DNA of 64,000 nucleotides from Terrabacter sp. Root85 (GCF_001429185.1 NZ_LMIW01000001.1:582439-646438), one strand, 5' to 3'; numbered from the stretch's first letter, positions 14,127-59,135 are shown. Notes: generated by a model not told the origin, from the sequence alone. Made by a program: numbers and translations.

Positions 14127-14185
14127 GGGTTTCCTTCAGTTACAGAGGCTTTCGTATGCCGTGTGCGTGCGACCGCGCGACCGCG

Positions 14186-15535
<1,350 letters not shown>

Positions 15536-38375: not shown

Positions 38376-38497
38376 CCCGACCGGGCGCGCCCTCGTGCAA
38401 TGGGCGTATGCCGTCCTCCCACTTTCGGTGGGGGTGATCGTGCGGGCCGGTCGACAAACTGGAGGATCAGGCAGCCGCAGGATGGGAAGGACGAGTC

Positions 38498-40413: not shown

Positions 40414-40490
40414 GGCTCCGTCAAACGACGTAGACGCGGGTCAGGCCCACGCGGGTGTCCAGCGGACGCGCGGCAGCGGATCGTCGAGGC

Positions 40491-42080
40491 ATGAACGGAC
40501 CACTCGTCACCTCCCTCGGCCACGCCGGTCTGCGCATCGACGCGCCCGGCATGCGGATGCTGTGCGACCCGTGGATGTCGCCACGCGGCGCGTTCCTCGG
40601 GTCCTGGTTCCCGTTCCCCGACAACGCGCACGTGCGGACACCGCAAATGCTCGATGCCGACTGGGTCGCCATCTCGCACGAGCACCTCGACCACTTGGAT
40701 CTGCCGCTGCTGCAGGGCCTTTCGCCATCGACGCGTCTCGTCATACCGCGCTACCCCTCGAGGGAGATGCGCAACCGCATCGCGGGTGCGGGCATCTGCA
40801 ACGTCGTCATCGAGCTCGACGCGTGGGAGCGGCTGGCCCTGAACGACCGCGGCGACTGGGTCACCGTCATCCCCGAGCTGAGCCCGATGTGCCACGACGC
40901 CGCGATCCTCGTCCACGTCGACGGGCACGCCGTGCTGCACACCAACGACGCGCGTCTCAGCGTCAGCCAGCTCCGCCGGGCCGCCGAGGAGTGCGGGCGT
41001 CCCCTCGACGTCATGGGGGTGCAGATGTCCGGGGCCTCGTGGCACCCCATCTGCTACGACTACCCGCGCGAGGTCGTCGAGCGGATCAGCTCCGAGAAGC
41101 GCTTGGGCAAGTTCCGCGCGGTGACCCGCCTGCTGCGGTCGGCGCCGCCGAAGATCGTCATGCCCTATGCCGGCCCGCCCGCCTTCCTCGACCCCGCCCT
41201 CGCGCACCACAACGCCGCGGTGCAGGCCCCCGGCATCTTCCCCGACCAGGCCCAGGCGCTGGCGTTCCTGCGCGACCGGCTCCCGGGCCAGACCTCGCTC
41301 TACCTGCTGCCCGGCGACCGCCTCCACGTCGGGCCCGGTGACGTCGAGCGCGACCCGAGGTGGGCCGACTTCTCCTTCGACGACACCTCCGAGTACCTCA
41401 GGGCGTATGCCGCCCGGCGCGCCGACGAGATCGCCGCGGTGTACGCAGAGCTGCCGGACCCCCCTCCGGAGAGCCGGATGGGCGAGCGCTTCCGCGACCA
41501 CTTCCTCGCGCTCGGAGCCCTGTCCGGCTACTTCCTGCAGAGGATCGGCATGACGGTGCGGTTCGAGGTCGTCGGCCGAGCGGGCGGCACGTGGGACGTG
41601 CGGCTGGGGCCCGAGACGACGGAGGTGGACCTGTCCCCCGTCGGTGGGACGCCCGGCTACCACCTGACGGTCGAGGCCCGCTGGCTCGACGCGGTGCTCA
41701 CGGGTCGCATCCGGTGGGAGGACCTCTTCCTCTCGCTGCGCATCCGCGCCAGCCGGGATCCCGACGTCTACAACGACTACCTCGTCGGCCTGCTCAAGCA
41801 CGCGGACCGGGACGCCCTCGAGGCCGTCGAGGGGTACGAGACGAGCCGCGACCCGGCCGAGACGGTCGTGCTCTCCGACGGCCGGACGGACTACGTCGTG
41901 AGCCGCTACTGCCCCCACGCCGGCGAGGACCTCCAGTACGGCGGCGTCGTCCGCGACGGGAGACTCCGGTGCCTCGGGCACAACTTCGAGTTCGACCTCG
42001 AGACCGGGACCTGCCTCAACGCCAGGTGCGACCCGCTCCAGGTGACCCGGGCGCCGGCGCCGCTGCCGGCCGGTCGCTGA
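40491..42080 (+). CDS. MBL-fold metallo-hydrolase domain fused to C-terminal Rieske [2Fe-2S] domain
   Basis: ATG at 40491. MBL HxHxDH motif (ISHEHLDHLD). C-terminal Rieske CxH...CxxH (CPHAGEDL...17 aa...CLGHNFEFD). Confidence 0.7.
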   Translation: MNGPLVTSLGHAGLRIDAPGMRMLCDPWMSPRGAFLGSWFPFPDNAHVRTPQMLDADWVAISHEHLDHLDLPLLQGLSPSTRLVIPRYPSREMRNRIAGAGICNVVIELDAWERLALNDRGDWVTVIPELSPMCHDAAILVHVDGHAVLHTNDARLSVSQLRRAAEECGRPLDVMGVQMSGASWHPICYDYPREVVERISSEKRLGKFRAVTRLLRSAPPKIVMPYAGPPAFLDPALAHHNAAVQAPGIFPDQAQALAFLRDRLPGQTSLYLLPGDRLHVGPGDVERDPRWADFSFDDTSEYLRAYAARRADEIAAVYAELPDPPPESRMGERFRDHFLALGALSGYFLQRIGMTVRFEVVGRAGGTWDVRLGPETTEVDLSPVGGTPGYHLTVEARWLDAVLTGRIRWEDLFLSLRIRASRDPDVYNDYLVGLLKHADRDALEAVEGYETSRDPAETVVLSDGRTDYVVSRYCPHAGEDLQYGGVVRDGRLRCLGHNFEFDLETGTCLNARCDPLQVTRAPAPLPAGR

Positions 42081-42123: not shown

Positions 42124-42768
42124 TCACTGGGGGTGGAGCAGGTAGACCGCGGTCTCGAGCAGCAAGGCCACGGTGCGCGACAGCGACGGAGCGCAGAGGT
42201 AGCCGGCATCGAGGTCCACCCGGCGCGGGACGACGTGCTCCAGGTACCACGTCTCGGGGTCCGGGGCGGGCGCGGAGGAGACCGCGGCGAGCGGTGGCTC
42301 GAGCACCCGTGAGTCGCGCATCCTGATCTGCGCCGGTCCAGTCAGTCCCGGTGTGGCCTCGAGCACCCAGCGGCACCCGGACGGGTAGCGGCGCGCCAAC
42401 GCGACCGTCTCGGGCCTGGGGCCGACGAGGGTCATCTCGCCGCGAAGGACGTTGAGCAGCTGCGGCAGCTCGTCGAGCGAGGTGCGCCGGAGCAGGGCCC
42501 CGACCCTCGTGACGCGAGGGTCGCGCCCCATCGTGATGTCGAGACCCTCGCCACCCGAGGTCATGGTGCGCAGCTTGAGGATGGTGAAGGGGCGTCCGCC
42601 CGCGCCGACCCGCTCCTGGCGGAACAGCACGGGCCCCGGGCTCGTCGTGCGGATCGCGACCGCCGCCGCCACGACGACCGGCGCGCTCAGCACGAGGGCC
42701 ACCGCGGCGACCACGACGTCAAGTGCCCGACGAGCGCGGCTGACCCGAGTGGATTCCGTCGTGCTCAG
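42124..42768 (-). CDS. sugar transferase (Bac_transf / polyprenyl-phosphate hexose-1-phosphate transferase, small type)
   Basis: Bac_transf signature (RALDVVVAAVALVLSAPVVVAAAVAIRTTSPGPVLFRQERVGAGGRPFTILKLRTM...DELPQLLNVLRGEMTLVGPRP). Start ambiguous: CTG overlapping the upstream stop, or a GTG 18 codons in. The 566-aa listed ORF is a two-gene read-through artefact. Confidence 0.65.
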   Translation of the reverse strand: MSTTESTRVSRARRALDVVVAAVALVLSAPVVVAAAVAIRTTSPGPVLFRQERVGAGGRPFTILKLRTMTSGGEGLDITMGRDPRVTRVGALLRRTSLDELPQLLNVLRGEMTLVGPRPETVALARRYPSGCRWVLEATPGLTGPAQIRMRDSRVLEPPLAAVSSAPAPDPETWYLEHVVPRRVDLDAGYLCAPSLSRTVALLLETAVYLLHPQ

Positions 42769-43775
42769 CCGGTCCCGGCCGCGACGAAGACGACGTCGAA
42801 CTGGCTCGTCACCGCGCGGACGTCGTGTCCCCGGTCCACCACGTAGGCCGACGGCGTCATGTGTGTCCACAGCCGCGCTCCCTTCTTCCGCCTCTGCTCC
42901 AGCGCCCTGGTCAGCGCGTTCGGGACGTCCCCCGGGTCGACGAGGGTGACGAGCTGGCCGCGGTAGTGCTGCGCCCAGGTCCAGATGTCGACCGCTCTCG
43001 CCCCCTCGGCGAGGGGGATGTCCACGTAGGTGTGCACGTCGGCCTCGGCGCGCGCGACGTCGCCGGGATACGCCCCGGGGTGAGCCAGTGCCTTGCGCGC
43101 CTGGAGGGTCACCCGGGTGCCCCACCGGCGTACGGCCTCGCGCCAGCTCTGCTGCATCGCGTCGTCGCGGGAGCTGCCCTGGGAGGCGTACCAGGCATCG
43201 TCCTGCAGACCCGGGCTGAGGTCGATGACGTCCACCCCGGAGGCGGCGTAGCCGTCGACCGCGGCGAGGCTCGCTCCGGGGCTCGTGCTCGCGGAGCCGG
43301 CACCGCACATGCGCATGACCGCCGTGGACGAGGCGGTCCACGACAGGCAGCCCAGCTCGGGGACGACCACGTCGATGAGCACCTTCGTGCCGGGCGAGGA
43401 GGCGTGGATGTCGGCGACGGTGCGCCTCAGCATGTCCGCCGCCTGTTCCGGGGTCGTGCCGTCGTGGTAGCCGAGCTCGTCGGCGACCTTGATGCCGGCC
43501 ACCCCTCGGCGGCGCGCGAGAGCGAGGGCGGTGCCGAGAACCTGGCGGTAACGGGTCGGTCCTGCGAGGTAGGCCTTGACGACGTCGGACTCGACCCAGA
43601 CGCCGGTCCCCGTCGCGCTGAGGTCGTCGACGAGCTCGGCGTACCGTCCGTCCGTCGGCGTCTGGGTGCCGAGGACGCTCGCCGCCCGTGGGGTCGCGCT
43701 CGGGGCCGGCGCACCGCAGCCGCCGGCGAGAAGGGCCGACGCCGCGACGACCGAGGCCAGCACGCGCCTGGTCAT
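42765..43775 (-). CDS. lipoprotein of unknown function (possible polysaccharide-processing protein)
   Basis: ATG at 43775 (MTRRVLASVVAASALLAGGCG, signal peptide plus lipobox). 336 aa. ATGA overlap with the flippase stop. Confidence 0.55.
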   Translation of the reverse strand: MTRRVLASVVAASALLAGGCGAPAPSATPRAASVLGTQTPTDGRYAELVDDLSATGTGVWVESDVVKAYLAGPTRYRQVLGTALALARRRGVAGIKVADELGYHDGTTPEQAADMLRRTVADIHASSPGTKVLIDVVVPELGCLSWTASSTAVMRMCGAGSASTSPGASLAAVDGYAASGVDVIDLSPGLQDDAWYASQGSSRDDAMQQSWREAVRRWGTRVTLQARKALAHPGAYPGDVARAEADVHTYVDIPLAEGARAVDIWTWAQHYRGQLVTLVDPGDVPNALTRALEQRRKKGARLWTHMTPSAYVVDRGHDVRAVTSQFDVVFVAAGTG

Positions 43776-45058
43776 CGCGGGGTGCCTGCCGTGAGCCGTC
43801 GCACGACGAGCACGGTGCTGACATCGGTGACGAGGTAGGCGACGGCGCTGGCCACGGCTGCCCCGGTCACCCCGAACGACGGGATGAGGGCGAGGTCGAG
43901 TCCGAGTGTCGCGAGCAGGCCGACGGCCTGCAGCACCGAACCGGTGCCGGGACGCCGGGTCCCCAGCAGGTAGCCGCCGGCCAGGCCCCCCGCGGGTGAG
44001 GCGCAGAGGCCGACGGCGATGATGGCGGCCGGCACGACGGACGCGACGAACTCCTGACCGTAGAGGGCCGGCAGCAGGGGTCCCGCGGCGAGCGCCAGCA
44101 CGACGGCACCGACGATGCCCACGCCACCGAGCCACGGCAGCTGTCGACGCACGACCGTCGCGGAGGCCTCCGGCCCGAGGCGGGCGATCCGCGGATAGCT
44201 GACCCAGGTCACCGCGAGCGACGGCAGCCTGACGAGCTCGGCGAACTTCGAGGCCACGGCATACACGCCCAGCGGTGCCGGACCGGCGATGGAGCCCAGG
44301 ACGAGGAAGTCCAGGCGCAGGTTGAGCAGGTTGACCAGGCCGCCGACCTGACCGAGCAGGCCGAACGACACGATGCTGCGGCCGAGCGGGCGGTCGGGAC
44401 GCCCGGTCATCCGCATCCCCCGGCCGTGCACCTGGCGCACGAGACGGGCCCACCCCGCCCCGGCGACGACGACGTCGGCGACGATGAGCACGACGACGAG
44501 CAGCAGGGGCCCGCGCAGTCCGAGCAGCCAGGCGACACCGAAGGCGGGGAGGAAGGCTGCTTCCTCCCCGGCAGTGACCGCGTTGGACCCCTTCCGGTCG
44601 TCGAGCCCCTGGAGGCTCGACTTGGCGACGGCGAGCGGCAGCTGGGTCGCGACACTGACGCCGGCGAGGAGCATGACCAGCGGGCTCGCCGTCGGGAGCA
44701 GGACCGCATGGATGACGGGAACGAGCAGCAGCCACACCGCGGTGCCGATCCCCATGCCGGCGCCGAGCAGCACGAGGATCGTGGGCCACAGCCGCGGGTG
44801 CCCGGCGTGGGGGCCGGCGAGGAAGTAGCCCATCGCACCCGGCAGACCACAGGCGGCGAGGACGCCGACCAGACCCGGCAGGACGCGCAGCAGGGCGAGG
44901 ACCCCGACGTCCTCGGCGCCTCCGACCCGCGCGACGAGGATCGTGCCGATCCCGAGCGCGACCACGGCGACGAGCCGGGCGCCGAGGTTGTCGAGGACGG
45001 CCCGCCCCGGGATGCGGAGGCGACGGGAGGCGTGGCTCGGGTTGAGACGCACCGACAC
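43772..45058 (-). CDS. Wzx-like polysaccharide/oligosaccharide flippase (MOP superfamily)
   Basis: GTG at 45058 with GGGGAGG 7 nt upstream. About 12-14 TM helices, of the 'polysaccharide biosynthesis protein' type. Confidence 0.6.
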   Translation of the reverse strand: MSVRLNPSHASRRLRIPGRAVLDNLGARLVAVVALGIGTILVARVGGAEDVGVLALLRVLPGLVGVLAACGLPGAMGYFLAGPHAGHPRLWPTILVLLGAGMGIGTAVWLLLVPVIHAVLLPTASPLVMLLAGVSVATQLPLAVAKSSLQGLDDRKGSNAVTAGEEAAFLPAFGVAWLLGLRGPLLLVVVLIVADVVVAGAGWARLVRQVHGRGMRMTGRPDRPLGRSIVSFGLLGQVGGLVNLLNLRLDFLVLGSIAGPAPLGVYAVASKFAELVRLPSLAVTWVSYPRIARLGPEASATVVRRQLPWLGGVGIVGAVVLALAAGPLLPALYGQEFVASVVPAAIIAVGLCASPAGGLAGGYLLGTRRPGTGSVLQAVGLLATLGLDLALIPSFGVTGAAVASAVAYLVTDVSTVLVVRRLTAGTPR

Positions 45059-45059
45059 G

Positions 45060-46451
45060 TCATCGCCTCCCCGGAACGGAGGCGGGCAGGACCTCCGGAG
45101 CCGGTCGCCGCGACACGGCCACATCGGCGAGGATCAGGTCGAGACCGGCGACGAGGCCCAGGACCGCCCACAGGTGCCGGAAGTGCAGCACCTCGTAGAA
45201 GAGGCCCGACATGAGGAACGCCGCGCCGAGGGCGGCGAGGAAGTGCGGCGACGGGACGAGCCGCGTCACCGGCCCCGGGTCGCCGCTGCGTCCCCGACCT
45301 CCCTCGGCCACGCCACGTCCCCGGCGTCCCGCGACGCGCGCCAGCCGTGCCGCCACGGACGCGAGCAGGACGACGAGGCCGACGCCTCCGATGAGGCCGA
45401 GCTCGACGAGCGTCGCCACGTAGTCGTTGTGCGCCTCCTTGACGTAGGGAGCAGGGATCGACGCCAGGGCCTCCTTCGTCCGCCCGGGACCGACACCGAC
45501 CAGGGTCCCGTCCCAGAAGAGCCGGACGCCTTCGGAGAAGAGGACCTGCCGGTCCTGGCTCGACGAGTCCCCCCGACCGAACGAGTCGTGCAGGACCGGA
45601 CCACCGGCGGCGGCGCTCGCCTGCACCGACCCCCAGTCGACCGAGGTGACGACCAACCCGGCGGCCGCCGCCAGGACGCACGCGAGCCCGGTCGCGGCGA
45701 TGGCACCATGCGACCGCCATGACCCGACGACGACCCCGACGCCGAGGCCCACCAGCATGCCGAGCATGGCGCCGTTCGACCCGGTGAGGACGGTCGCGAC
45801 GACGAGGAGGAGCACGGTCGCAGCGCGCGCGAGGCGGCGGCGCGGGTGTCGCGAGGCGAGGACGACGAACAGGCAGGCGACGAAGTAGTTGCCGGCGAGG
45901 TTGGGGTCGCCGAAGGTCAGGGCGGACCGCGAGCCGTCCCGGGTGGTCTGGCCGGCGAGCCACGGGATCCCGGCGAGGCGACCGGCCACCAGCAGGCCGG
46001 CGCTGACGATCCCGCTCCAGCACCACGTGACGCACACGAGTCGGACGAGGGAGTGGTCGGCACGCACGGCGTTGGCGATGGTGGCGGCCCAGAGCAGGAG
46101 GAACAGGTCCTGTCCGAGGACCGTCGTCGAGAGGAGGTCCCGGCTGGCGAGCGCGGCGACGGCACCGGCCAGGACCAGGAGCCACATGCCTGCGGCGTAC
46201 GGCACGTGGAGGCGTACGCCGTTGCTCGACAGCCAGAGGAGCACCCCACCCATCGCGAGGAGGATGGGCAGGTCCGCAGGTGAGGTGTTGCCGGGACCGG
46301 TGGGCGTGAGGACCGGCATGCACGCGATGGCTGCGGCGATGAGGAGGCGCACGGACCGTGACGCCGGCACCACGGTCCGGCGCGCCGGCAGCGGTGCGGA
46401 CGCAGCGGCCCGTCCTGTCGTCGTGGGCGCAGCGGCCGCCGTCGTCGTCAC
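45060..46451 (-). CDS. O-antigen ligase / Wzy-like polymerase family membrane protein
   Basis: Wzy_C-type signature (EAHNDYVATLVELGLIGGVGLVVLL) within a polytopic membrane protein. GTG at 46451 with GGAGG upstream, in a GTGA overlap with the upstream stop. Confidence 0.65.
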   Translation of the reverse strand: MTTTAAAAPTTTGRAAASAPLPARRTVVPASRSVRLLIAAAIACMPVLTPTGPGNTSPADLPILLAMGGVLLWLSSNGVRLHVPYAAGMWLLVLAGAVAALASRDLLSTTVLGQDLFLLLWAATIANAVRADHSLVRLVCVTWCWSGIVSAGLLVAGRLAGIPWLAGQTTRDGSRSALTFGDPNLAGNYFVACLFVVLASRHPRRRLARAATVLLLVVATVLTGSNGAMLGMLVGLGVGVVVGSWRSHGAIAATGLACVLAAAAGLVVTSVDWGSVQASAAAGGPVLHDSFGRGDSSSQDRQVLFSEGVRLFWDGTLVGVGPGRTKEALASIPAPYVKEAHNDYVATLVELGLIGGVGLVVLLASVAARLARVAGRRGRGVAEGGRGRSGDPGPVTRLVPSPHFLAALGAAFLMSGLFYEVLHFRHLWAVLGLVAGLDLILADVAVSRRPAPEVLPASVPGRR

Positions 46452-47449
46452 GACCCCACCTCCGCGAGGAGGGACGCGTGGGCGCGGGCGAACGGCGGTG
46501 AGTCGCTCGTCGTCGCCACCTCGCCGAGACCCACGAGCACGGCGTCCCGCCAGGCCGTGGTGCTCGGGTCGCGCCCGAGCGCGGGCGCGATGAAGTCGGC
46601 CACACCGGCGGCATACCACCCCTCGCCCCTCAGCAGATGCCGCACGGGGTCACCCCATGCACCCGCGCGGAGGCCCGCGTGCCCGTGGACCCGGGCACCG
46701 CTCGGGGTGTGCCGGTCGAGGTAGAGCGTGTAGGCGAGGGCGAAACGCACGCGGTCCCACAGTGGGGATCCACCGAAGCGAGCGTGCTCCCAGTCGACGA
46801 CGCCGGTGACCCGACGACCCGTCCGCAGGAGGTTGCCGCACCAGAAGTCGCCGTGGGTGACGTGACCCGTGTCGAGGTCGCCCACCCGAGCCCTGGCGCG
46901 CCGGCACGCCTGCGCCGCCGCCATCCCGGCCTCGTCCGGCCAGCGGCTCTCGAGCGCAGCGGCGCCGTCGACCTCCGGCTGCGGCGGGACCGTGAGGCCG
47001 TGCAGCTGGGAGAGCCACCCGGCCGCCGCGTCGAAGTCGGCCCGCACGTCACGGCGACGGCCCGTGTGGTGCCAGCGGTGGTAGTCGACCGAGAACGGAC
47101 GACCCGACGAGACCGTCGTGACGAGGAACGTGCCGGCCACGGTCTCGTGCAGGGCGAGCAGGCGGGGGACCGTCCCGCCGACGAGACCGGGGTCGAGCTG
47201 CCCCAGCTGATCGAGTGCGGCGGCCTCGGCACGGACCGACCGGGCGGCCCCACCGGTCAGGGCCACCTTCACCGCGAGGACCGGCGTCGTCGCACCGGAG
47301 GGTGTCGCCATGACGACCGCCTTGGGATGGTCGTCCCGCGACATGGCCACGACCGCGAGCCGGACCGTCCGGTCGTCCAGGTGCCGCCGCAGGACGTCCT
47401 CGACGGCCCCGAGGTCGGGGAACGCCGTCTGCCTCGTCGACGTGGTCAT
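46448..47449 (-). CDS. phosphotransferase enzyme family protein (APH/choline-kinase-like kinase fold)
   Basis: ATG at 47449 (MTTSTRQTAFPDL...). Catalytic motif HGDFWCGNLL...VVDWEHARFG (HGDxxxxN...D). ATGA overlap with the upstream stop. Confidence 0.65.
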   Translation of the reverse strand: MTTSTRQTAFPDLGAVEDVLRRHLDDRTVRLAVVAMSRDDHPKAVVMATPSGATTPVLAVKVALTGGAARSVRAEAAALDQLGQLDPGLVGGTVPRLLALHETVAGTFLVTTVSSGRPFSVDYHRWHHTGRRRDVRADFDAAAGWLSQLHGLTVPPQPEVDGAAALESRWPDEAGMAAAQACRRARARVGDLDTGHVTHGDFWCGNLLRTGRRVTGVVDWEHARFGGSPLWDRVRFALAYTLYLDRHTPSGARVHGHAGLRAGAWGDPVRHLLRGEGWYAAGVADFIAPALGRDPSTTAWRDAVLVGLGEVATTSDSPPFARAHASLLAEVGS

Positions 47450-47868
47450 GGTCGGTGGACGATGACCATGCGCCCGGCCACGAGCGGACCGACCCAGCGG
47501 ACGAGGTGGCGGTTCCGGCCGAGGCACGTCGTGGCCGTGATGAGCAGGGATCCGCGGGACCGCCCCGGGGGGACGGTCGCGAAGGCGTTCCAGAACCACG
47601 TCAGGCTCTCGACCGAGTCCTCGACGACGAAGGCTGCCGTCCTCAGGCCCGGCAGCACGACGAGCTCACGGTCGACGACGAGGCCGGCGTCCCGTGCGAG
47701 ACGTGTCAGGCGCCTGGCGCTGAGCCGCCGCCCGTCGAGGAGGACGAGCCGCTTCGCCGACGACACTCCCGCGATCGCCGCCGCCGAGCCCCGTCGGGAG
47801 CCGCGGACCTCGACCACCGGCGTGCCACCCGGCACGAGCAGGGCCAGCGCGGCCTCGAGGGCGCTCAC
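47446..47868 (-). CDS. hypothetical protein (140 aa)
   Basis: GTG at 47868 with GGGGAGGG upstream, in a GTGA overlap with the GT4 stop. No recognisable family. The listed ORF 47446..48681 has a long antisense-like extension. Confidence 0.4.
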   Translation of the reverse strand: MSALEAALALLVPGGTPVVEVRGSRRGSAAAIAGVSSAKRLVLLDGRRLSARRLTRLARDAGLVVDRELVVLPGLRTAAFVVEDSVESLTWFWNAFATVPPGRSRGSLLITATTCLGRNRHLVRWVGPLVAGRMVIVHRP

Positions 47869-49040
47869 GACGCCCTCCCCCACCCGGGCACCGACGTCAG
47901 CAGCGGCCGGCGGACCTCGGGGTCGCCGGTGTAGACCTCCTGCAGGGTCGCGCCCAGGGTGCTCGCGTCGTAGCGGGTGCCGAGCTGGGCCCTGGCCCGC
48001 TCCGCCCAGGCAGCGGCCTGTCTCGGGTGGGTGAGTGCGTGGTCGAGCGCCCGGGCCAGCTGGTCCGGGTCCTGGGGCGCCACGAGCAGACCGGTCACTC
48101 CGGGGACCACGACGTCGGAGACCGCGTTCACCGACGTCGCGACCACGGGTATGCCGCACGCCTGGGCTTCGACGATGGCGCACGGCAAGCCCTCGTAGCG
48201 GCTCGACATGGCGAAGACGTCGAACGCCGGCAGCAGCTCGGCCACGTCCGTGCGGTGACCGAGCAGCAGCACGCGACGTTCGAGGCCCGACGCCTGCGCT
48301 CGACGGGCGGTCTCCTCCAGGAGGGGACCGCCACCGACCCAGACGAGCACGGCCGGCGTCGCCATCCGGGCCAACGCCTCGAGCATGACCTCCGGCGCCT
48401 TCTGGAAGTCCATCCGTCCGACCGTGCCGACGACCGTCGCGTCGGCGGGCAGCCCGAGCAGCGCCCGCGCGCGCAAGCGTGACGCCGGCGACGCGGTGAC
48501 CGACGCGGGCTCGACCGCCGGACCGATCGTGACGAGCTGCTCGGGGCGGACCACCTTCCGCCGCAGCGCCTCGACCGCGACGCCGGTGCCGATGGCGAGA
48601 TAGGCGTCCGTGACGTGCGAGAGCTCGCGCTCGGTACGGATGTAGGCGTGCCGCACGGCAGCGGACTGGAAGTCGTGCCAAGGGAATCCGTGCAAGGTGT
48701 GCACGATGCGGGGCACGCCTGCTCTCGAGGCCGCCACGCGTCCCAGGACGCCCGCCTTGGCGCTGTGGGTGTGCACGACGTCGAAGCCCTCGGCCCTGAG
48801 CAGCCGCGAGATCGACCGGAAGGCCCTGGCGTCCTGGGCCGGGTTGATCGGTGAGACGAGCTCCGGCACGACGACCACGTCGACGCCGCTCGAGCGGGCG
48901 ACGTCGAGGAGAGCGTCACCCGAGCCGACGACGAGAGTGCTCGCGTACAGCTCTCGGGGCAGGCTCACCGCCCCGCGCACGGCGACCCCGCCGGCCCCGG
49001 CGACGCACCGGGTGATGATGTGCGCGACACGCTGCGTCAT
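47865..49040 (-). CDS. glycosyltransferase family 4 (GT-B fold)
   Basis: ATG at 49040 (MTQRVAHIITR...). C-terminal GT4 motif (EGLPCAIVEAQACGIPVVATSVNAVSDVV). ATGA overlap with the upstream stop. Confidence 0.8.
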   Translation of the reverse strand: MTQRVAHIITRCVAGAGGVAVRGAVSLPRELYASTLVVGSGDALLDVARSSGVDVVVVPELVSPINPAQDARAFRSISRLLRAEGFDVVHTHSAKAGVLGRVAASRAGVPRIVHTLHGFPWHDFQSAAVRHAYIRTERELSHVTDAYLAIGTGVAVEALRRKVVRPEQLVTIGPAVEPASVTASPASRLRARALLGLPADATVVGTVGRMDFQKAPEVMLEALARMATPAVLVWVGGGPLLEETARRAQASGLERRVLLLGHRTDVAELLPAFDVFAMSSRYEGLPCAIVEAQACGIPVVATSVNAVSDVVVPGVTGLLVAPQDPDQLARALDHALTHPRQAAAWAERARAQLGTRYDASTLGATLQEVYTGDPEVRRPLLTSVPGWGRAS

Positions 49041-50095
49041 GCCCGCGCTCCTGTCATCCCCGGGTTCGTCGCTCGCCCGGCTCGCGCGGCCTGCTCGGCG
49101 CGGTCGACGAGCTCGACGAGGGACGTCCCCGGACGTGCCGGGAGGACGACCTCGACGCAGTGGAGGGACCGGGCGAGGCGCTCCGACTCGCCCACGATCG
49201 ACGGATGCGCCGGGCCGAGGCCGGTGCCCAGTGCCAGCGTCGCGGCGAAGGCCCAGTACCGGCGCAGCTCGCCCGCGGCGTACGTGCCCGTGGCGAGGGC
49301 TCTCGCGGCGACCACCGGCGGGACCGGCCTCACCGAGGGTCGCGCCCCGGAGCCACGTCGGAGCACGAGGAGCAGGGACGGCGTCATGGCGGGCAGCGTG
49401 CCGTCCCACGGCTGCTCCACCCGGCCGTGGGGCATCGACCGACGGCCGGCCCGGACCGGGCCCGCGTCGACGCGTCGGGGCTCACGCAGCCCGTAGATCA
49501 TCGCCCCGTCGTAGGTGCAGAGGTTGTCGCTGACCGACGCGCCCTGGTCCGGCCCGAGGCCGGCGACGAGCGTCGACTTGCCCACGCCCCCCGGCCCGGC
49601 GAGGAGCACGCCCAGACCTGCGACCTGCGCCGCCGAGACGTGCAGCGGAACGGCTCCCCCGACACCGGCCCACCACAGGGTCGGGTACTGCAGGAGCGCG
49701 GCACGCCAGAGCAGCTCGGTGCGCCCGGGAGCCACGAGGCGCAGGGCGCGGTGGGAGGGCCCCGGGCGGGAGCGTGCCGTCACCGAGACTGCCCTCGGCG
49801 ACGGCTCGACGAGCAGGTCCAGACCGCTCGCGCAGGCGTCGGTGAGCACGACGCGACGGCCGTCTGCGAAGGCACCGCGGGTGAGCGGCGTCAGGCCGTG
49901 CACCTCGAACGGCTCGCGAGAGGACTCCAGCTGCACGACGACATCGGCGTCCCGGCCCGGCTGCGGCACCTCGGCCCGGTGCGGCGCCTCCGCTCGAGGA
50001 GGGTCGCCGAGGGCGCGGTCGATGACCTGCGACCAGCCGCGTGGCACCGACCGGACCTCCAGGGTCAGGCCGCAGGACTTGGCGCGCCGGCTCAC
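49037..50095 (-). CDS. HprK-like / P-loop (Walker A) putative kinase
   Basis: GTG at 50095 with GGAGG 5 nt upstream, overlapping the Wzz-like stop (GTGA). Walker A LLAGPGGVGKSTLVAGL embedded in an HPr-kinase-C-domain-like context. Family assignment tentative. Confidence 0.5.
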   Translation of the reverse strand: MSRRAKSCGLTLEVRSVPRGWSQVIDRALGDPPRAEAPHRAEVPQPGRDADVVVQLESSREPFEVHGLTPLTRGAFADGRRVVLTDACASGLDLLVEPSPRAVSVTARSRPGPSHRALRLVAPGRTELLWRAALLQYPTLWWAGVGGAVPLHVSAAQVAGLGVLLAGPGGVGKSTLVAGLGPDQGASVSDNLCTYDGAMIYGLREPRRVDAGPVRAGRRSMPHGRVEQPWDGTLPAMTPSLLLVLRRGSGARPSVRPVPPVVAARALATGTYAAGELRRYWAFAATLALGTGLGPAHPSIVGESERLARSLHCVEVVLPARPGTSLVELVDRAEQAARAGRATNPGMTGARA

Positions 50096-51444
50096 GGCAT
50101 CCTCCACATCTTGTGGCTGCTCAGGGCCCCGTGGTCGACGCGACGTGGCTCGGGGACGCCGTCGGCCGGATCCACCGGGATCTCGGGGGTGACCTCCGTG
50201 AGGGGGGTGATGGGGGGACGGTGGACCCGGCCACCCTCCGCGAGCGTCTGCCGGTCGATGAGCCACCGGCGCCGGAAGGTGAGCACGCCGACGACGGGCC
50301 AGTCCATCACCGCGGCGGTGCGGGCCAGCTCCTCGAGGCGGCGCTGCGCCTCGACGGTCGGGCTGAGCACGATCACGACGGGGTCGGCAGGGCGACCGAC
50401 GTCCTCGGCCGGCCGCGCGACCGTCGCGTCGGGGGCGTGGTCGACATGCAGGCCGGTGAGCGCCTCGAGCTCGGCGCAGACGCGCGCAGCCCACCGGTCG
50501 TGCTTCCTCTCGACCGGGAGCAGCAGCAACGGCCGCCCGGTGAACCGGGCGGCGAGCACGGCTGCAGCACCGCCGAACTCACGCAGGGCGCGGGCACCCC
50601 GTGGTCCCCCGAGGTCGAGCGTGGGCAGGTGCCCGAGGAGCGGGGCGTGCAGCTCGGCCGCCACCCACCGACGGCCCCGGACCCGGGGGTGGAGTGCCTC
50701 GAGGATCGCCACGAGGCCCAGCGCGAGGATCAGCGCGGCCAGACCCGCCAGAGCCACGAGCTGGCCGACCTTTGGGCCGACCGGATCAGAGGACGCCGTC
50801 GCGGGATCGAGCAAGCCGATGCTCGATCGCTCCGACGCCGCCAGGACGAGGTCGGAGCGCTGCCGCAGCAGGTCCGTGAGGGTCGGCGCGTCCGCCGCGA
50901 TCCGCGCCTGCAGCTCGAGTACCGCGCCCGGGGCAGCCGCCGCCAGCTGGTGGATCAGGCCGTCTCGCTCCTTCGTGAAGCGGCTGATCTGGTGGTCGAG
51001 AGCGGTCATCTTCACGGCGTCGCTCTGGTGAGCGGTGTTGGCGTACTTGAGAGCCTGCTGGACGAGCGAGTTCGCGACGATGACCGAACGGTCCGCGTTG
51101 CCCGTGGTGACGAGGACGTCGTTGACCGTGGAGACGCCCACTCGGTTCACGACGATCGAGTGGGTGGCGAAGGGAGTCGGGTCGCCCTCGAGCCCAGCTG
51201 CAGCCATGGCGTGACGCACCGTGTTGGGGGTCGTGATCACACCCTGGAGCCACTGTGTCGCAGCGTCCGCCTGGACATTGGTGCTGGCGAGACCACCGGA
51301 CATCTGGACCCGCGCCGAGGCCTGGTACTGCAGGTCCTGGTTGGTGGCGTAGACGCCCGCCGCCAATGACGCCACCAGGACCAGCAACCCGATCAGCCAC
51401 CAGTAACCACCGATCATGCGGCGGAAGGCTTCATCGATGCGCAT
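50092..51444 (-). CDS. Wzz-like polysaccharide co-polymerase (chain-length determinant family) with a non-kinase C-terminal domain
   Basis: N-terminal TM helix (WWLIGLLVLVASLAAGVYA), a periplasmic helical region, a second TM helix (LVALAGLAALILALGLVAILEAL), then a 170-aa cytoplasmic domain with no Walker A. Confidence 0.6.
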   Translation of the reverse strand: MRIDEAFRRMIGGYWWLIGLLVLVASLAAGVYATNQDLQYQASARVQMSGGLASTNVQADAATQWLQGVITTPNTVRHAMAAAGLEGDPTPFATHSIVVNRVGVSTVNDVLVTTGNADRSVIVANSLVQQALKYANTAHQSDAVKMTALDHQISRFTKERDGLIHQLAAAAPGAVLELQARIAADAPTLTDLLRQRSDLVLAASERSSIGLLDPATASSDPVGPKVGQLVALAGLAALILALGLVAILEALHPRVRGRRWVAAELHAPLLGHLPTLDLGGPRGARALREFGGAAAVLAARFTGRPLLLLPVERKHDRWAARVCAELEALTGLHVDHAPDATVARPAEDVGRPADPVVIVLSPTVEAQRRLEELARTAAVMDWPVVGVLTFRRRWLIDRQTLAEGGRVHRPPITPLTEVTPEIPVDPADGVPEPRRVDHGALSSHKMWRMP

Positions 51445-51472
51445 GTCTTCTCTCTCTCAAGACGTCCGGGAA

Positions 51473-52936
51473 TCAGTGCAGGACGGCGAACGGCCGCATC
51501 CGCGCCACCGGGCGGATGATCCGGTGCGAGGACAGGACCGACATCGCCGCGTTGACGCCGGCGTCGTCGAGGTGCGCCGTCTCGCTCGGAGCGGTGTCGT
51601 CGTAGCGGAACCGGAGCGTGGAGCGCCCCGCGGGATCGGGCTGGGAGGCCCCGCTCGTCGCGAACTGGTCGATGACGGTGCCCGCCCCGTGGCAGGCGGA
51701 GTGGAGGCTCTGGCCGCTGGACGGGCCGGCGACCGCGAGGTACGACGACGTCCGGTGCGTCCCGGGCAGCAGGACCGCCTGACCCGTCTGCGCGAAGGTG
51801 GTCCCGGGCACCATGAGGTGCGCCGGGTAGGCGCGGCACGAGTTGTGGCGGTGCACGACGGCACGTTCGCCGGCGACGTCCTCCTCGTAGATCGAGTTGT
51901 GGGGCGAGTCGACGACGAGCCTGCCCGGGGCGCCGCCGAAGGCGTCCGCCGCCAGCTGCCGGAGTGCCTGGTAGGTCGCCATGCGGAAGGCGAAGCCGTA
52001 GTTCATCGCCGCCGCGTTGGCGAGCATGAGCCGCTTCCCCTCGTCCGAGTCGAGACCGACCGGCGGGCACGCCGAGCTGAAGAAGAGGCGCATCCGCTCG
52101 CGGACCTGCTGGGTGGATCGCGCCGTGGCGAGGTGGAACAACGGCTTCTGGACCGCCATCGCCGCCCTCATGACGCGGGCGGTGTCACGCCGGCGGGCGA
52201 ACAGGTGACCGATCTCGCCCGTCAGCACGCCGCCGCCGGCGTGGTACTGCAGCGTCACCTGGCCCTCGTGGACGCCGAGCTGCCGGGCGGCGACCGGGTC
52301 GAGGATCTCCTCGACCACCTGCAGCTCGACGAAGTGGTTCGTCGGACCCACGGTGCCGAAGCGGAGCCGGGCCAGCTGCCACGTGAGCGCGGGGACCTCG
52401 GCGACGAGACGCTCGCTGCCGCCCCACGCCGCGAGGTCGATCCGGCCGCTCTCCTCCACCCGCTCGAGCTCGGCGGGGTCGACCCCGTTCCGCTCGACGG
52501 CGAAGCCGGCGCCCTCGGTGGCGGCGGCGACCACGTCCCGATACGACAGGTCGCGCCGGTTGGTCGTGGGATAGGGGTAGCGCTCGCGCACCCGGCGGTA
52601 GAAGTCGCTGACGGCGGCATCGCTCGGTCGGTCGCAGCCCAGGGCGATGAGCGCCATGCCGCAGTTGACCGAGGAGCTCGTCAGCGTCGGTCGGATCGTC
52701 CCTGCCGTCGCCACGGCGATGCTCGAGGGCATCTCCATGGCCGACTTGTGGTGGAAGTCGGGAAGCACGACCGGTGGCGCCACGAGGTCCATCCCGAGCG
52801 TGGCGGAGTTCAGCGACGCGACGAGGTCTCGGTCCGCCGGGACGCGGTCGCTGTCGAACACGCGTGCCTCGTGGTGGCCTGCCGGCCGGACCGACGTCGG
52901 CTCCGCGGCGCGACCGGCGATGACGGTGATCTTCAT
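51473..52936 (-). CDS. RtcB-family (RNA-splicing ligase-like) protein
   Basis: RtcB hallmark motifs are present: SVNCGMALI (metal-binding Cys), GPTNHFVELQ (the GxxNHFxE motif), VVHRHNSCRA (cf. HRKGA) and ACHGAGTV (cf. the HGAGR nucleotidyl-His motif). 487 aa. Confidence 0.6.
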   Translation of the reverse strand: MKITVIAGRAAEPTSVRPAGHHEARVFDSDRVPADRDLVASLNSATLGMDLVAPPVVLPDFHHKSAMEMPSSIAVATAGTIRPTLTSSSVNCGMALIALGCDRPSDAAVSDFYRRVRERYPYPTTNRRDLSYRDVVAAATEGAGFAVERNGVDPAELERVEESGRIDLAAWGGSERLVAEVPALTWQLARLRFGTVGPTNHFVELQVVEEILDPVAARQLGVHEGQVTLQYHAGGGVLTGEIGHLFARRRDTARVMRAAMAVQKPLFHLATARSTQQVRERMRLFFSSACPPVGLDSDEGKRLMLANAAAMNYGFAFRMATYQALRQLAADAFGGAPGRLVVDSPHNSIYEEDVAGERAVVHRHNSCRAYPAHLMVPGTTFAQTGQAVLLPGTHRTSSYLAVAGPSSGQSLHSACHGAGTVIDQFATSGASQPDPAGRSTLRFRYDDTAPSETAHLDDAGVNAAMSVLSSHRIIRPVARMRPFAVLH

Positions 52937-52970
52937 GGGGCGAACCTGTCCTCGTGGGGTGCGGGCTGCA

Positions 52971-54464
52971 TCAGTAGTCGTCCGGGTACGGGGCGGACGT
53001 CTGGAGGGCGAACACGTCGCCGGGTTCGGGGCGGTAGACCGGCAGCACCGCAGCGAGGGCGCGGCGCACGTCGTCCGCCGCGTTCCGCCGGGCGGCGTCG
53101 TAGAGCGCGAGCATCAGGGCGTCGAAGTGCTCGTGCACGGGGACGGCCTGCGCGCCGAAGATGCGTGGATGACTCGTGGGGAGGCATTCCTCGTCGTCGC
53201 TGAACAGCGACTCGTGGAGCTTCTCCCCGGGACGGAGCCCGGTGAACCGGATGTGGACGTCGCGGACGCCGAGCTGCCGTGCGAAGTTGGCCACGAGGTC
53301 GACGATCCGGACGGGTGAGCCCATGTCGAGCACGAACGTCTCCGAGCCGGTCGTCAGGTGCGCGGCCTCGAGCACGAGCCCGACCGCCTCCTCGATCGTC
53401 ATGAAGTACCTCGTGACGTCCGGATGCGTCACGGTCACGTCCCGTCCGGCCGCCATCTGGGCCACGAGCACGGGAAGGAGCGAGCCGCGGCTGCCGAGCA
53501 CGTTGCCGAAGCGTACGGCCGAGACCACGGTGCGGCCCCCCGCGTGCTTCTTGACCACCTGCTCGGCCAGGGCCTTGGTCGCTCCCAGGACGGAGGTCGG
53601 GTCAGCGGCCTTGTCGGTGGAGATGGCGACGAAGCGCTCGACTCCCGCCTCGACCGCGGCGACCAGCACGTTCTCGGTGCCCTGGACGTTCGACTTCACG
53701 CCCTCGCACGGATGCTCCTCGAGCATCGGCAGGTGCTTGAGCGCCGCCGCGTGGAAGACGACCTGCGGCTTGTACTGCCCCATGACCTGCCGCATGCGTT
53801 CGGCGTCGCGGATGTCGGCCACGACGGTGTCGTGCGACTCGAGGAACGCCTCTCCCCGCAGCTCGAGCTGGAGGCGGTGGAGGTTGGACTCGTCGTGGTC
53901 GAGCATGACGAGGCGGTGGGGCACGAAGCCGTTGACCTGGCGGCACAGCTCGCTGCCGATCGAGCCACCGGCCCCGGTCACGAGCACCGTTCTGCCCGTG
54001 ATGATCTCGGCAACCTCCGGTGACGCGACGTGGAGCTCGCAGCGGCCGATCAGGTTGGCGACGTCGAGCGAGCACATGTCCGTGCCCACGACGTCGCGTC
54101 GCAGCAGGGCCACGAAGGACGGCAGCCTGCGGACACTCGCCCCGACGCGGGCGGCGGCGGTGGCCAGCCTCGTCACCTCGGCCTCGGGAAGCCCCGGGAT
54201 CGCGAGGACGACGACGTCGATCCGCTCGGCCGTCGCGACCCGCAGGACGTCGGCCAGCCGGCCGAGCACGGGGAGGTGGCGAACCCGGCGCTTGTCGGGG
54301 TCGTCGTCGAGGAAGCCCACGGGACACAGCCCGAAGTCGTCGACTCGCTGCAGGTCCCGCGCGAGAGCCTTGCCTGCTGCCCCGGCTCCGACGATGAGGG
54401 TCCGGAGGCTGAGTCCCGGACCGGCGCTGCCGAGCCCCGGCAGGGTGACCAGCTGTGACGTCAT
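52971..54464 (-). CDS. polysaccharide biosynthesis protein CapD/PglF-like (membrane-associated NDP-sugar 4,6-dehydratase)
   Basis: N-terminal CoA-binding-like domain. SDR core VLVTGAGGSIGSELCRQ...FHAAALKHLPMLEEHP. 497 aa. Confidence 0.85.
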   Translation of the reverse strand: MTSQLVTLPGLGSAGPGLSLRTLIVGAGAAGKALARDLQRVDDFGLCPVGFLDDDPDKRRVRHLPVLGRLADVLRVATAERIDVVVLAIPGLPEAEVTRLATAAARVGASVRRLPSFVALLRRDVVGTDMCSLDVANLIGRCELHVASPEVAEIITGRTVLVTGAGGSIGSELCRQVNGFVPHRLVMLDHDESNLHRLQLELRGEAFLESHDTVVADIRDAERMRQVMGQYKPQVVFHAAALKHLPMLEEHPCEGVKSNVQGTENVLVAAVEAGVERFVAISTDKAADPTSVLGATKALAEQVVKKHAGGRTVVSAVRFGNVLGSRGSLLPVLVAQMAAGRDVTVTHPDVTRYFMTIEEAVGLVLEAAHLTTGSETFVLDMGSPVRIVDLVANFARQLGVRDVHIRFTGLRPGEKLHESLFSDDEECLPTSHPRIFGAQAVPVHEHFDALMLALYDAARRNAADDVRRALAAVLPVYRPEPGDVFALQTSAPYPDDY

Positions 54465-55648
54465 CGCGTGCCCCCGATCCGCCAGAGCGCCGCACAGACC
54501 TCGTCGACGTCGTCATCGGTGAGGTTCTGGTCGAAGGGCAGCGACAGGGTGGTGGCGAAGACGGCGTCGGCGCCGGGAAGCCCGCCGGCAGGCACGACGC
54601 AGTGCTCGACGTGCCACGTCAGCCGGTGCAGGGGGATGAAGTGCACCGAGGTCCCGATGCCCTGGTCGTTGAGCCGGTCGATGAGCTCGTCGCGGGCGAC
54701 CGGGAAGCCTGAGTGGACCCGCACCGCGTAGAGGTGCCAGGCGTGTCGGCCCTCGACCGGGCGCGGCGGCAGGCTGACCCAGGGGAGGCTGCTGAGCTGC
54801 GCGTCGTAGCGCGCCGCCACCTCGCGACGGCGTGCCTGGTCGGTGTCGAACCGGCGCAGCTGCGCACGACCGATCGCTGCCTGGACGTCCGTGAGGTTCG
54901 CCTTGAGGCCGTCGTCGGCCACGTCGTAGCGCCAGCTCGCCCCGGGCGAGTAGCGGCGCCAGGCGTCGCGGGACATCCCGTGCAGCCGGGTGCGGGCCAT
55001 GACCTCGGCGAAGTCCTCGTCGAGGGTCGTCACCATGCCGCCCTCCCCGATCGCCAGGTTCTTCGTGGCGTAGAAGCTGAAGCAGGTCGCGCGGGAGATC
55101 GACCCGACCGGTCGCGTCCCGACGCACGTGCCGAGCGCGTGCGCGGCGTCCTCGATGACGTGGTCGAGTCCGATCCCGGCTGCCGCGGCGGCGGCCTCCA
55201 CGTCGACCGGGTTGCCGCCGAGGTGCATGACGACCATGGCCGACACGCCACCGACGTCGCGCACGGCAGCGCGGATGTGCTCCTCGGCCGGGACGGCCGT
55301 CCAGGGGTCGACATCGACGAGGACCGGCACGAGGCCGGCATGGGTGATGGCTCCGGCTGCGCCGCAGAACGTGTTCGTCGACATCAGCACGCGCGACCCA
55401 CGGGCCAGACCCAGGCCCCGCAGAGCGAGCTCCAGTCCCGCGGTGCATGAGCTGACCGCGACGCCCCGGGCGGCACCGACGTGGTCGGCGAACTCTCGCT
55501 CGAAGTCGGCGACCTGCTGCCCCGTCGTCACCCACCCCGACTCGAGGACCTGGGCGACGGCGGAGCGGGCATCGGGACCGATCACCGTGCGCGCGAAGGG
55601 AATCGAGCGAGCCGCGGCCACTCGTGGTGCGGATGTGTGGACCGTCAT
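54461..55648 (-). CDS. DegT/DnrJ/EryC1/StrS family aminotransferase (sugar aminotransferase)
   Basis: ATG at 55648. PLP-Lys region (SFYATKNLAIGEGGM). 395 aa. ATGA overlap with the CapD start. Confidence 0.85.
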   Translation of the reverse strand: MTVHTSAPRVAAARSIPFARTVIGPDARSAVAQVLESGWVTTGQQVADFEREFADHVGAARGVAVSSCTAGLELALRGLGLARGSRVLMSTNTFCGAAGAITHAGLVPVLVDVDPWTAVPAEEHIRAAVRDVGGVSAMVVMHLGGNPVDVEAAAAAAGIGLDHVIEDAAHALGTCVGTRPVGSISRATCFSFYATKNLAIGEGGMVTTLDEDFAEVMARTRLHGMSRDAWRRYSPGASWRYDVADDGLKANLTDVQAAIGRAQLRRFDTDQARRREVAARYDAQLSSLPWVSLPPRPVEGRHAWHLYAVRVHSGFPVARDELIDRLNDQGIGTSVHFIPLHRLTWHVEHCVVPAGGLPGADAVFATTLSLPFDQNLTDDDVDEVCAALWRIGGTR

Positions 55649-56454: not shown

Positions 56455-56533
56455 AGCATCGTTCGGGACGGTGCCTCGCGCACCCGCCGTCTGGACGACC
56501 TCCGGCTACGTCACATGGCCGACCGTGTCGTCC

Positions 56534-59083: not shown

Positions 59084-59135
59084 GTGGCTCACCCTAGGGA
59101 TCGGCCGTCGGCGCGGCGGTCTAGGGTGGCCGACT

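Follow-up and report, generated by a model that had tools for sequence, protein, structure and literature searches.

RtcB proteins are described as ligases, and all experimentally characterized members act on nucleic-acid substrates (PMC10630183; PMC8051266). In the numbering of Pyrococcus horikoshii RtcB (PhoRtcB), metal M1 is bound by Cys98, His234, and His329, and metal M2 by Asp95, Cys98, and His203 (PMC9745838; residue roles also in PMC8051266). Asn202 places the attacking hydroxyl in the sealing step, and Arg238 (Arg189 of Escherichia coli RtcB) acts as a clamp on the first two phosphodiesters of the polynucleotide strand that carries the 5'-OH; mutation of the E. coli counterpart slows sealing 200-fold (PMC8051266). 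A second group of described systems, the bacillosamine (pgl) loci of Campylobacter and Neisseria and the AATGal locus of Bacteroides fragilis PSA, combines a PglF-type dehydratase, a DegT aminotransferase, a small PglC-type transferase, a GT4 glycosyltransferase, a Wzx flippase, and a Wzy_C-family protein. Here, we describe a locus of Terrabacter sp. Root85 in which a glycan-assembly operon of this kind also encodes a variant RtcB, an HprK-like kinase, and an APH-fold kinase. The analyzed stretch comprises 64,000 nucleotides (GCF_001429185.1, NZ_LMIW01000001.1:582439-646438; hereafter the window, with positions counted from its first letter). The locus is a recognizable Wzx/Wzy system, and in its RtcB/kinase module the RtcB fold may serve a function that is genuinely new.

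Because the G+C content of the window is approximately 72-75%, open reading frames (ORFs) alone are uninformative, and genes were located by a third-position GC frame plot together with start-codon mapping. The plot showed continuous minus-strand coding from about 42.1 to 57.9 kb, and the two methods confirmed the twelve consecutive minus-strand genes at 42124-55648 that a preliminary description of this DNA had listed. In 5' to 3' order, they are as follows.

54461-55648, minus strand: DegT/PseC-like sugar C4-aminotransferase, 395 amino acids (aa), first gene of the operon (PF01041, 1.9e-99)
52971-54464, minus strand: PglF/CapD-like UDP-N-acetylhexosamine (HexNAc) 4,6-dehydratase, 497 aa, with an N-terminal CoA_binding_3 domain (PF02719, 1.7e-101; PF13727, 8e-10)
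51473-52936, minus strand: variant RtcB-family protein, 487 aa (PF01139, 4.2e-47, full length)
50092-51444, minus strand: polysaccharide co-polymerase (PCP; Wzz/PslE/Wzc-like), 450 aa (ortholog profile: PslE, 2e-8; Wzc, 4e-5)
49037-50095, minus strand: HprKl, a PEPCK/HprK-fold P-loop kinase of a ScmC-like family, 352 aa (fold search)
47865-49040, minus strand: GT4 glycosyltransferase, 391 aa (PF00534 and PF13692, ~1e-34)
47446-47868, minus strand: U140, 140 aa, a small alpha/beta fold like the C-terminal half of a class I methyltransferase (fold search)
46448-47449, minus strand: APH/choline-kinase-fold small-molecule kinase, 333 aa (PF01636, 2.5e-11; 44.2 bits against a cut-off of 23.2)
45060-46451, minus strand: Wzy_C polytopic membrane protein, 463 aa, probable repeat-unit polymerase (PF04932, 1.9e-15; ~10 transmembrane-like segments)
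43772-45058, minus strand: MOP/Wzx-type flippase, 428 aa from a GTG start or 450 aa from an ATG at 45124 (PF01943, 8e-09; PF13440; ~11 transmembrane-like segments)
42765-43775, minus strand: U336, a conserved extracytoplasmic lipoprotein, 336 aa (signal peptide with lipobox ..LLAGGC)
42124-42870, minus strand: small PglC-type polyprenyl-phosphate phosphoglycosyl transferase, Bac_transf (PF02397, 2e-49; TIGR03025, 9e-59), with a GTG start at 42870 or possibly a CTG start at 42768

Every functional call of the preliminary description was upheld by profile or structure evidence, and nine of the twelve proteins had a Pfam match above the gathering score. The operon that it proposed is real, and two of its details required revision. 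Of the nine 4-bp overlaps reported for the eleven junctions, seven are unambiguous, in-frame ATGA or GTGA overlaps, including the ATGA between the DegT and dehydratase genes, and two are arguable. At the Wzy_C/flippase junction, an ATGA is present with its ATG out of frame, and the start is either a GTG 1 nucleotide (nt) past the stop or an ATG that makes the genes overlap by 65 nt; at the U336/Bac_transf junction, the CTGA overlap requires a CTG start, and the GTG start otherwise gives a 106-nt overlap. The RtcB gene is bounded by spacers of 34 and 28 nt, and no terminator-like site was found on the minus strand within the operon. The limits of 42124 and 55648 proved too tight for the locus as a whole, which takes in three same-strand regulator genes upstream (55741-57861) and two conserved convergent genes downstream (38438-42080). 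No Rfam family, tRNA, or archease was found in the window.

The RtcB gene is an integral member of this cassette. The conservation scan covered one genome per species, and co-occurrence was counted at 54 species-level loci with full 10-kb flanks. Relatives were present in 184 species genomes, and the 80 best of these 184 belonged to Intrasporangiaceae/Dermatophilaceae, Dactylosporangium, Jatrophihabitans, Pseudonocardiales, Streptosporangiaceae, Nocardioidaceae, Kribbella, Kineosporiaceae, Frankiales, and metagenome-assembled genomes (MAGs) of Mycobacteriales. HprKl accompanied RtcB at 53 of the 54 loci, GT4 at 52, the APH kinase at 51, and DegT and PglF at 50 each, with at least three of these five partners at 53/54; the recurrence of the gene set at 53 of 54 species-level loci is far beyond chance. 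The lipoprotein U336 was found at 38 of these loci. Intrasporangium oryzae, Dactylosporangium fulvum, and a Jatrophihabitans MAG carried the full 12-gene set along with the MBL-Rieske gene and the kinase/regulator pair described below. Gene order was partly shuffled among carriers, a second arrangement having RtcB between GT4 and U140. RtcB was the most conserved protein of the cassette, with a median identity of 66% as compared with 29-60% for the rest.

We then mapped the active site by alignment to P. horikoshii RtcB and checked it in 81 distinct orthologues. The window protein, which is 98% identical to the RtcB of Terracoccus sp. 273MFTsu3.1, matched PF01139 with 161.8 bits against a cut-off of 27, its residues 52-486 covering profile positions 12-424 of 426. 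Eleven positions were invariant in 81/81 sequences (D65, H67, N97, C98, N202, H203, E206, H234, H329, N330, and H404, in PhoRtcB numbering), including the nucleophile His404, which is His416 in the window RtcB. M1 is complete (Cys98, His234, and His329) and M2 keeps Cys98 and His203, such that five of the six metal-site residues are invariant; the remaining M2 ligand, Asp95, is replaced by Ser in all 81 (Ser89 in the window protein), leaving the canonical set of binuclear-site ligands incomplete. Arg238 is replaced by Gly beside a 4-aa insertion, again in 81/81 according to the sequence alignment (Gly236 in the window protein), and with it the polynucleotide clamp is lost; Arg408 is replaced by Thr in 80/81. 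Among the guanine contacts, Glu206 is invariant, and the position of Lys480 is occupied by His, Asn, or Thr. The strict conservation argues for a working enzyme, and the loss of the clamp residue Arg238 argues against a nucleic acid strand as the substrate that bears the hydroxyl.

These substitutions define a wider class. In an exhaustive representative search, relatives at 30-47% identity also lacked Asp95, and more distant ones were canonical (G[YF]D-NCG / GSRG / HGAGR). As a control, a metagenome scan with a pattern common to all RtcBs yielded 80 loci, which split cleanly into canonical and variant RtcBs, the Asp95, Arg238, and Arg408 substitutions co-varying. We compared the neighborhoods of 10 variant loci (61 ORFs within 6 kb) with those of 11 canonical loci (124 ORFs). 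The leading Pfam families beside variant RtcBs were Glycos_transf_1 (7), Polysacc_synt_3 (4), Polysacc_synt (3), Wzy_C (4), Metallophos (4), Epimerase (3), Beta_helix (3), and APH (3), and archease was absent from the top 25; those beside canonical RtcBs were Archease (5), Radical_SAM (5), RNase_PH (3), and tRNA_anti-codon (2), with no glycan-assembly family in the top 25. With local profiles, neighbors resembling HprKl, the APH kinase, U140, U336, and CDP-alcohol transferases were confined to the variant set of this 10-versus-11 comparison. A CDP-alcohol phosphotransferase gene directly followed the variant RtcB gene at L086, L095, and L107 (above the Pfam cut-off), and a homologue at L089 did so with a match just below the Pfam threshold (4e-21 to the L086 protein); none was found beside the 11 canonical RtcBs. 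One match to the HprKl profile, at L091, was actually the P-loop of an ABC transporter and was rejected.

Gene fusions tie the variant RtcBs to the same partners. In P0343 (996 aa; L086 10001-12991), a Polysacc_synt/Wzx flippase is fused to a full RtcB domain, and the surrounding locus (68% GC) encodes Poly_export, Wzz/GNVR, DegT, a Bac_transf-PglF fusion, Wzy_C, GT4, the CDP-alcohol phosphotransferase, a Pel9A-like beta-helix protein, and an asparagine synthase. P0298 (885 aa) joins an HprK-like domain to a variant RtcB, with GT4, epimerase, and GT2 genes on one side and a Wzx flippase gene on the other; P0397 (755 aa) is another HprK-like kinase-RtcB fusion. Without fusion, the gene order in a 44% GC organism (L088) is HprK-like (1e-19 to the window HprKl), methyltransferase, RtcB, and Wzx, and the low-GC locus L089 comprises GT2, an acetyltransferase, four GT4s, Wzy_C, RtcB, the CDP-alcohol phosphotransferase homologue, and two methyltransferases. 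Four other apparent long RtcB fusions were discarded: P0403 as a probable frameshift or gene-calling chimera with low-complexity, out-of-frame-looking stretches, and P0277, P0285, and P0280 as probable chimeras with only partial RtcB matches.

Several further observations concern this variant class. On a 41% GC metagenomic contig (L095), tandem variant RtcB paralogues (10001-11365 and 12527-13942) precede the CDP-alcohol phosphotransferase gene. In P0343, P0332, and P0393, the otherwise essential, metal-bridging Cys98 position is Asp (..SVNDGMG..), which hints at a different metal preference in this sub-branch. Four variant-RtcB neighbors have Metallophos domains, some together with purple-acid-phosphatase, fn3, or CBM domains; these are suspected to map to very large ORFs (e.g., L092 1751-7741 and L097 3194-9034), and a possible role for them is that of extracellular phosphoesterases with a phosphate-containing polymer as substrate. 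At L088, the HprK-like, RtcB, and Wzx genes are followed downstream by a radical SAM/SPASM protein and two small ORFs (9194-11101), which recall the SynChlorMet peptide-modification cassettes, the setting in which proteins of the ScmC family first received their name.

The two kinases of the cassette both retain their catalytic motifs. HprKl has the fold, P-loop, upstream His, and downstream Asp of the PEPCK/HprK-like P-loop kinase superfamily, and its top fold match spans both PEPCK domains, beyond the HprK catalytic core. It fell short of the HPr kinase/phosphorylase profiles, scoring 16.1 bits against a cut-off of 240 for TIGR00679, and its homologues reached at most 17 bits against 33.3 for Hpr_kinase_C. 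The family name ScmC (PF27840) was taken from precomputed annotation; a literature search for "ScmC" returned only unrelated acronyms. In the APH kinase, K61, H199-G200-D201, N206, and D219 were invariant in 38 orthologues, and PDB profiles matched viomycin, hygromycin, macrolide, and capreomycin kinases at 1e-6 to 1e-5.

U140, encoded next to the APH kinase, had no detectable sequence relative with an assigned function. In a Kineosporiaceae MAG (L075 11537-12967), U140 and the APH kinase form a single 476-aa ORF, which could reflect either a true gene fusion or a frameshift in the assembly; because the two are joined there, U140 is probably an accessory domain of the kinase. Full-length class I methyltransferase genes adjoin variant RtcBs at low-GC loci (L088 2352-3200 and L089 12381-14196), and since U140 resembles half of this fold, it may have degenerated from an ancestral methyltransferase partner. 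The possibility that it is a cryptic archease, the RtcB cofactor, was rejected, as there was no PF01951 profile match and the fold search returned methyltransferase-like halves.

The remaining genes constitute a Wzx/Wzy-dependent pathway, with an initiating transferase, a MOP flippase, a Wzy-type polymerase, and a PCP encoded together. The nearest NCBIfam models of the DegT protein were PseC and ArnB, with scores below the equivalog cut-offs; the dehydratase was PseB-like at 2e-57, likewise below its equivalog cut-off, and is a soluble form, as a hydropathy scan showed no transmembrane segment. Pfam GNVR/Wzz matches to the PCP were weak and under the cut-off; the protein has two transmembrane segments and a cytoplasmic tail of ~210 aa that lacks a Walker A motif. 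For GT4, the nearest NCBIfam model was TIGR03088 (2.4e-44, under the cut-off), and U336 gave nothing significant against Pfam, NCBIfam, or PDB profiles.

Taking the gene content, conservation, active-site signature, fusions, and class-specific neighborhoods together, we propose that the locus directs the synthesis of a Wzx/Wzy-dependent secreted or wall-associated heteropolysaccharide and includes a cytoplasmic phosphoester module, a reading to which we assign a probability of roughly 0.45. What we infer in the following is each chemical step, which substrate is phosphorylated, and which nucleotide serves. Judging from family functions, the PglF-like dehydratase and DegT would produce a UDP-4-amino-4,6-dideoxy-HexNAc, and the PglC-type transferase would load this sugar onto polyprenyl phosphate. 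GT4 would extend the unit, Wzx would flip it, and Wzy_C would polymerize it under the control of the PslE/Wzc-like PCP. The 4-amino group may stay free, because no N-acetyltransferase is encoded. Outside the membrane, the lipoprotein U336 and a beta-helix protein would act, and expression would be governed by a histidine kinase and LuxR-type regulators.

In the phosphoester module, HprKl, the APH kinase (with U140), or both would phosphorylate a hydroxyl of a small alcohol, a sugar, or a lipid-linked repeat unit, giving a phosphomonoester. The variant RtcB would react with GTP and transfer the GMP borne by His416 onto this phosphomonoester to form X-p-p-G, the chemical equivalent both of the RNA(3')pp(5')G intermediate of RtcB and of an NDP-activated alcohol (NDP, nucleoside diphosphate). 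Attack by a glycan hydroxyl would then create a phosphodiester substituent or linkage on the repeat unit before flipping. In the window cassette, RtcB itself probably catalyzes this final attack, because Asn202 is retained; in other lineages, the adjacent protein of the CDP-alcohol phosphotransferase family probably does so. As supporting logic, the Wzx fusion would put RtcB at the cytoplasmic face, on the flippase substrate, and CDP-alcohol transferase neighbors without a visible cytidylyltransferase are expected if RtcB supplies the activated donor. On balance, we lean toward the view that the widespread RtcBs lacking Asp95, Arg238, and Arg408 form a class with a non-nucleic-acid role in cytoplasmic glycan assembly, guanylylating a kinase-made phosphomonoester from which RtcB or an adjacent CDP-alcohol-type transferase would form a phosphodiester.

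Several points weigh against this proposal. The replacement of Asp95 by Ser could impair NTP-dependent self-nucleotidylylation; the donor or the chemistry may then not be those of canonical RtcB. The nucleotide may not be GTP, because Lys480, which contacts guanine O6, is not conserved. The Arg238-to-Gly assignment comes from a sequence alignment through a gapped region. The final transfer step is assumed, because the window cassette has no CDP-alcohol phosphotransferase. The neighborhood comparison is small (10 against 11 loci), and its genes were called by a simple ORF rule, although the two classes differ starkly in it. Finally, the RtcB gene of L051 is accompanied by the regulators and a beta-helix protein (11666-14311) only, with no cassette within 10 kb; it is the single exception and possibly a split locus.

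Some of the same evidence could also be read as nucleotide-sugar salvage, which we consider unlikely. The APH family includes anomeric hexosamine kinases. The APH protein would then be an anomeric sugar 1-kinase (cf. NahK and AmgK), and RtcB would carry out its first two steps only, yielding a GDP-sugar for GT4 or the initiating transferase and no extra phosphodiester. This would suit a cassette in which a Pfam scan found no conventional sugar-1-phosphate nucleotidyltransferase; the ppG intermediate of RtcB is formally an NDP-ester (PMC9745838), loss of the Arg238 clamp on the 5'-OH strand suits a non-sealing enzyme, and variant RtcBs adjoin transferases that use NDP-activated substrates. However, Asn202, which positions the attacking hydroxyl for sealing, is invariant, and the partner in other lineages is a CDP-alcohol phosphotransferase, which forms phosphodiesters rather than glycosidic bonds. 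Moreover, RtcB is fused to a kinase of the HprK/PEPCK fold and not of a sugar-kinase fold, and most of the distant variant loci lack an APH gene.

It is very unlikely, in our estimate, that the protein is a conventional ligase for RNA repair or splicing that simply shares its location or regulation with the glycan genes, for example to deal with RNA damage under envelope stress. The full-length PF01139 match, the nucleophilic His, and most of the metal ligands would be in keeping with this, as would the nucleic-acid substrates of all characterized RtcBs (PMC10630183; PMC8051266), whereas the position within the operon is kept across orders despite gene shuffling, Asp95, Arg238, and Arg408 are lost together, and fusions join the variant to a Wzx flippase and to an HprK-like kinase. 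Archease, RtcA, tRNA, and structured RNA are all missing nearby, and it is the canonical RtcBs that occupy archease/RNA neighborhoods, the variants occupying glycan neighborhoods. Least probable to us is a protein-directed system, in which Wzy_C would be an O-oligosaccharyltransferase or ligase, HprKl a protein Ser kinase, and RtcB the enzyme joining a phosphoprotein or peptide to a glycan or nucleotide, giving a novel glycoconjugate. The Wzy_C family includes WaaL and PglL-type transferases, known HprK-fold kinases target protein or peptide serines, ScmC-family proteins occur in peptide-modification cassettes, and the DegT, PglF, and PglC genes resemble bacillosamine-based protein glycosylation loci. 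Nevertheless, the conserved PslE/Wzc-like co-polymerase points to polymerization, and the locus is accompanied by secreted beta-helix proteins, which are typical of polysaccharide processing. In addition, the cassette has no conserved gene for a candidate substrate peptide or protein, and the fold match of HprKl takes in both PEPCK domains and not just the HprK core. A reading as anti-phage defense was rejected, as PADLOC defense-system profiles gave zero matches to seven unusual proteins of the locus.

The genes that extend the locus beyond the operon are listed below.

57181-57861, minus strand: short soluble histidine kinase, 226 aa (HATPase_c, 2.6e-08)
56534-57184, minus strand: NarL-family response regulator, 216 aa (Response_reg, 1.8e-18; GerE, 1.5e-15), with an ATGA overlap with the histidine kinase gene
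55741-56454, minus strand: LuxR/GerE-type regulator, 237 aa, directly upstream of the operon (GerE, 3.9e-12)
40434-42080, plus strand: MBL-fold/SCP2/Rieske protein (Rv3818-like), 548 aa, convergent with the operon (Pfam)
38438-39955, plus strand: right-handed beta-helix protein, 506 aa (Beta_helix/NosD/DUF1565)

The LuxR/GerE-type regulator gene is syntenic at 42 of the 54 loci, and the short histidine kinase accompanies the cassette at 40. The receiver domain of the LuxR-type regulator is degenerate (Response_reg 22 bits against a cut-off of 30.2), and its sequence suggests an atypical, possibly phosphorylation-independent response regulator. The MBL/SCP2/Rieske gene is syntenic in Dactylosporangium, Jatrophihabitans, and others, lying within the 10-kb flank at 19/54 loci, and at L031 it is inside the cassette, between the RtcB and PCP genes; an MBL phosphodiesterase role for the 40434-42080 protein would agree with a product that contains phosphodiesters. 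In other genomes, homologous beta-helix or beta-helix-PKD proteins are encoded beside or inside the cassette, and in several, a gene for a secreted beta-helix/PKD protein of 1,400-1,500 aa directly follows RtcB (e.g., L020 11616-16112 and L067 11431-15657). The beta-helix protein is probably a polymer-processing enzyme, a candidate for glycan modification or depolymerization. Farther upstream, a short-chain dehydrogenase ORF (58307-59287, minus strand) and an endonuclease/exonuclease/phosphatase-family ORF (58800-59957, plus strand) overlap on opposite strands, both with high third-position GC; the Pfam match of the latter starts at residue 116, which makes a start farther downstream, and with it a smaller overlap, probable.

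The preliminary description had regarded the RtcB, HprK-like, and APH-fold proteins as genuine but non-standard members of a glycan operon. Profile searches on the ORFs showed that these calls are not mis-assigned glycosyltransferases, and the conservation of the cassette across orders, the RtcB signature, the fusions, and the neighborhood control bear out their membership. The undescribed phosphorylation, nucleotidylation, or ligation chemistry that it had suggested is supported by the conservation, signature, fusions, and neighborhoods, the chemistry itself being inferred. No comparable annotated or published cluster was found: NCBIfam equivalog and PADLOC models gave no match to the arrangement, literature searches of the available library found nothing that links RtcB to polysaccharide or glycan assembly (exopolysaccharide, O-antigen, Wzy, flippase, or glycosyltransferase), and the clusters of a 2026 paper on Actinoplanes exopolysaccharide differ from the present cassette. 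If our proposal is true, the RtcB fold would gain its first function away from nucleic acids, and there would be a new biosynthetic route to surface polysaccharides that are decorated or linked by phosphodiesters; the "activate and seal" chemistry by way of histidinyl-GMP would then include carbohydrates or lipid-linked intermediates. Many annotations of "RtcB family protein" in soil bacteria, which would probably be misleading, would also be explained. The polymer may be an uncharacterized actinobacterial exopolysaccharide with free amino and phosphate groups, and could therefore be zwitterionic. These hypotheses are directly testable, as they concern three soluble enzymes and several cultured hosts carry the cassette.

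Compared with the canonical RtcB ligases of P. horikoshii, E. coli, and human (RTCB), the variant shares the PF01139 fold, the His nucleophile, M1, the Cys and His of M2, Asn202, Asn330, and Glu206, and the proposed chemistry re-uses the same three steps. It differs in having Ser, Gly with the adjoining insertion, and Thr at the positions of Asp95, Arg238, and Arg408, in the loss of Lys480, and in the lack of an archease partner, as well as in its occurrence in glycan loci, its fusion to a flippase or kinase in some lineages, and its presumed non-nucleic-acid substrates. Unlike the pgl and PSA loci, the window locus belongs to a Gram-positive actinobacterial host and has no N-acetyltransferase, and it adds the PCP, RtcB, two kinases, U140, and a lipoprotein. 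HPr kinase/phosphorylase and the HprK-like kinases of ScmC or lasso-peptide systems differ in that the window locus has no HPr or precursor-peptide gene and HprKl falls under the Hpr_kinase_C and TIGR00679 cut-offs.

The coupling of a P-loop kinase to an end-joining enzyme, as in the HprK-like-RtcB fusions, has parallels in yeast and plant Trl1 and in bacterial Pnkp/Hen1, although the kinase here has a PEPCK/HprK fold rather than a polynucleotide kinase fold, and the context is glycan rather than RNA. RtcB requires the phosphate on the "donor" end, whereas classic ligases require a 5'-phosphate. With respect to LicC- and TarD-type pathways, the proposed activation would proceed by the histidinyl-GMP mechanism of RtcB instead of a cytidylyltransferase, and the cassette lacks LicC, TarD, and LicD homologues. 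The underlying logic would nonetheless be that of LicA/LicC/LicD (phosphocholine), TarD/TagF (glycerol phosphate), and IPCT/DIPPS, in which a kinase step and nucleotidyl activation lead to a phosphodiester on an acceptor. LicA also has the APH fold, and the likeness extends to the CDP-alcohol phosphotransferase gene that directly follows the variant RtcB gene in four loci.

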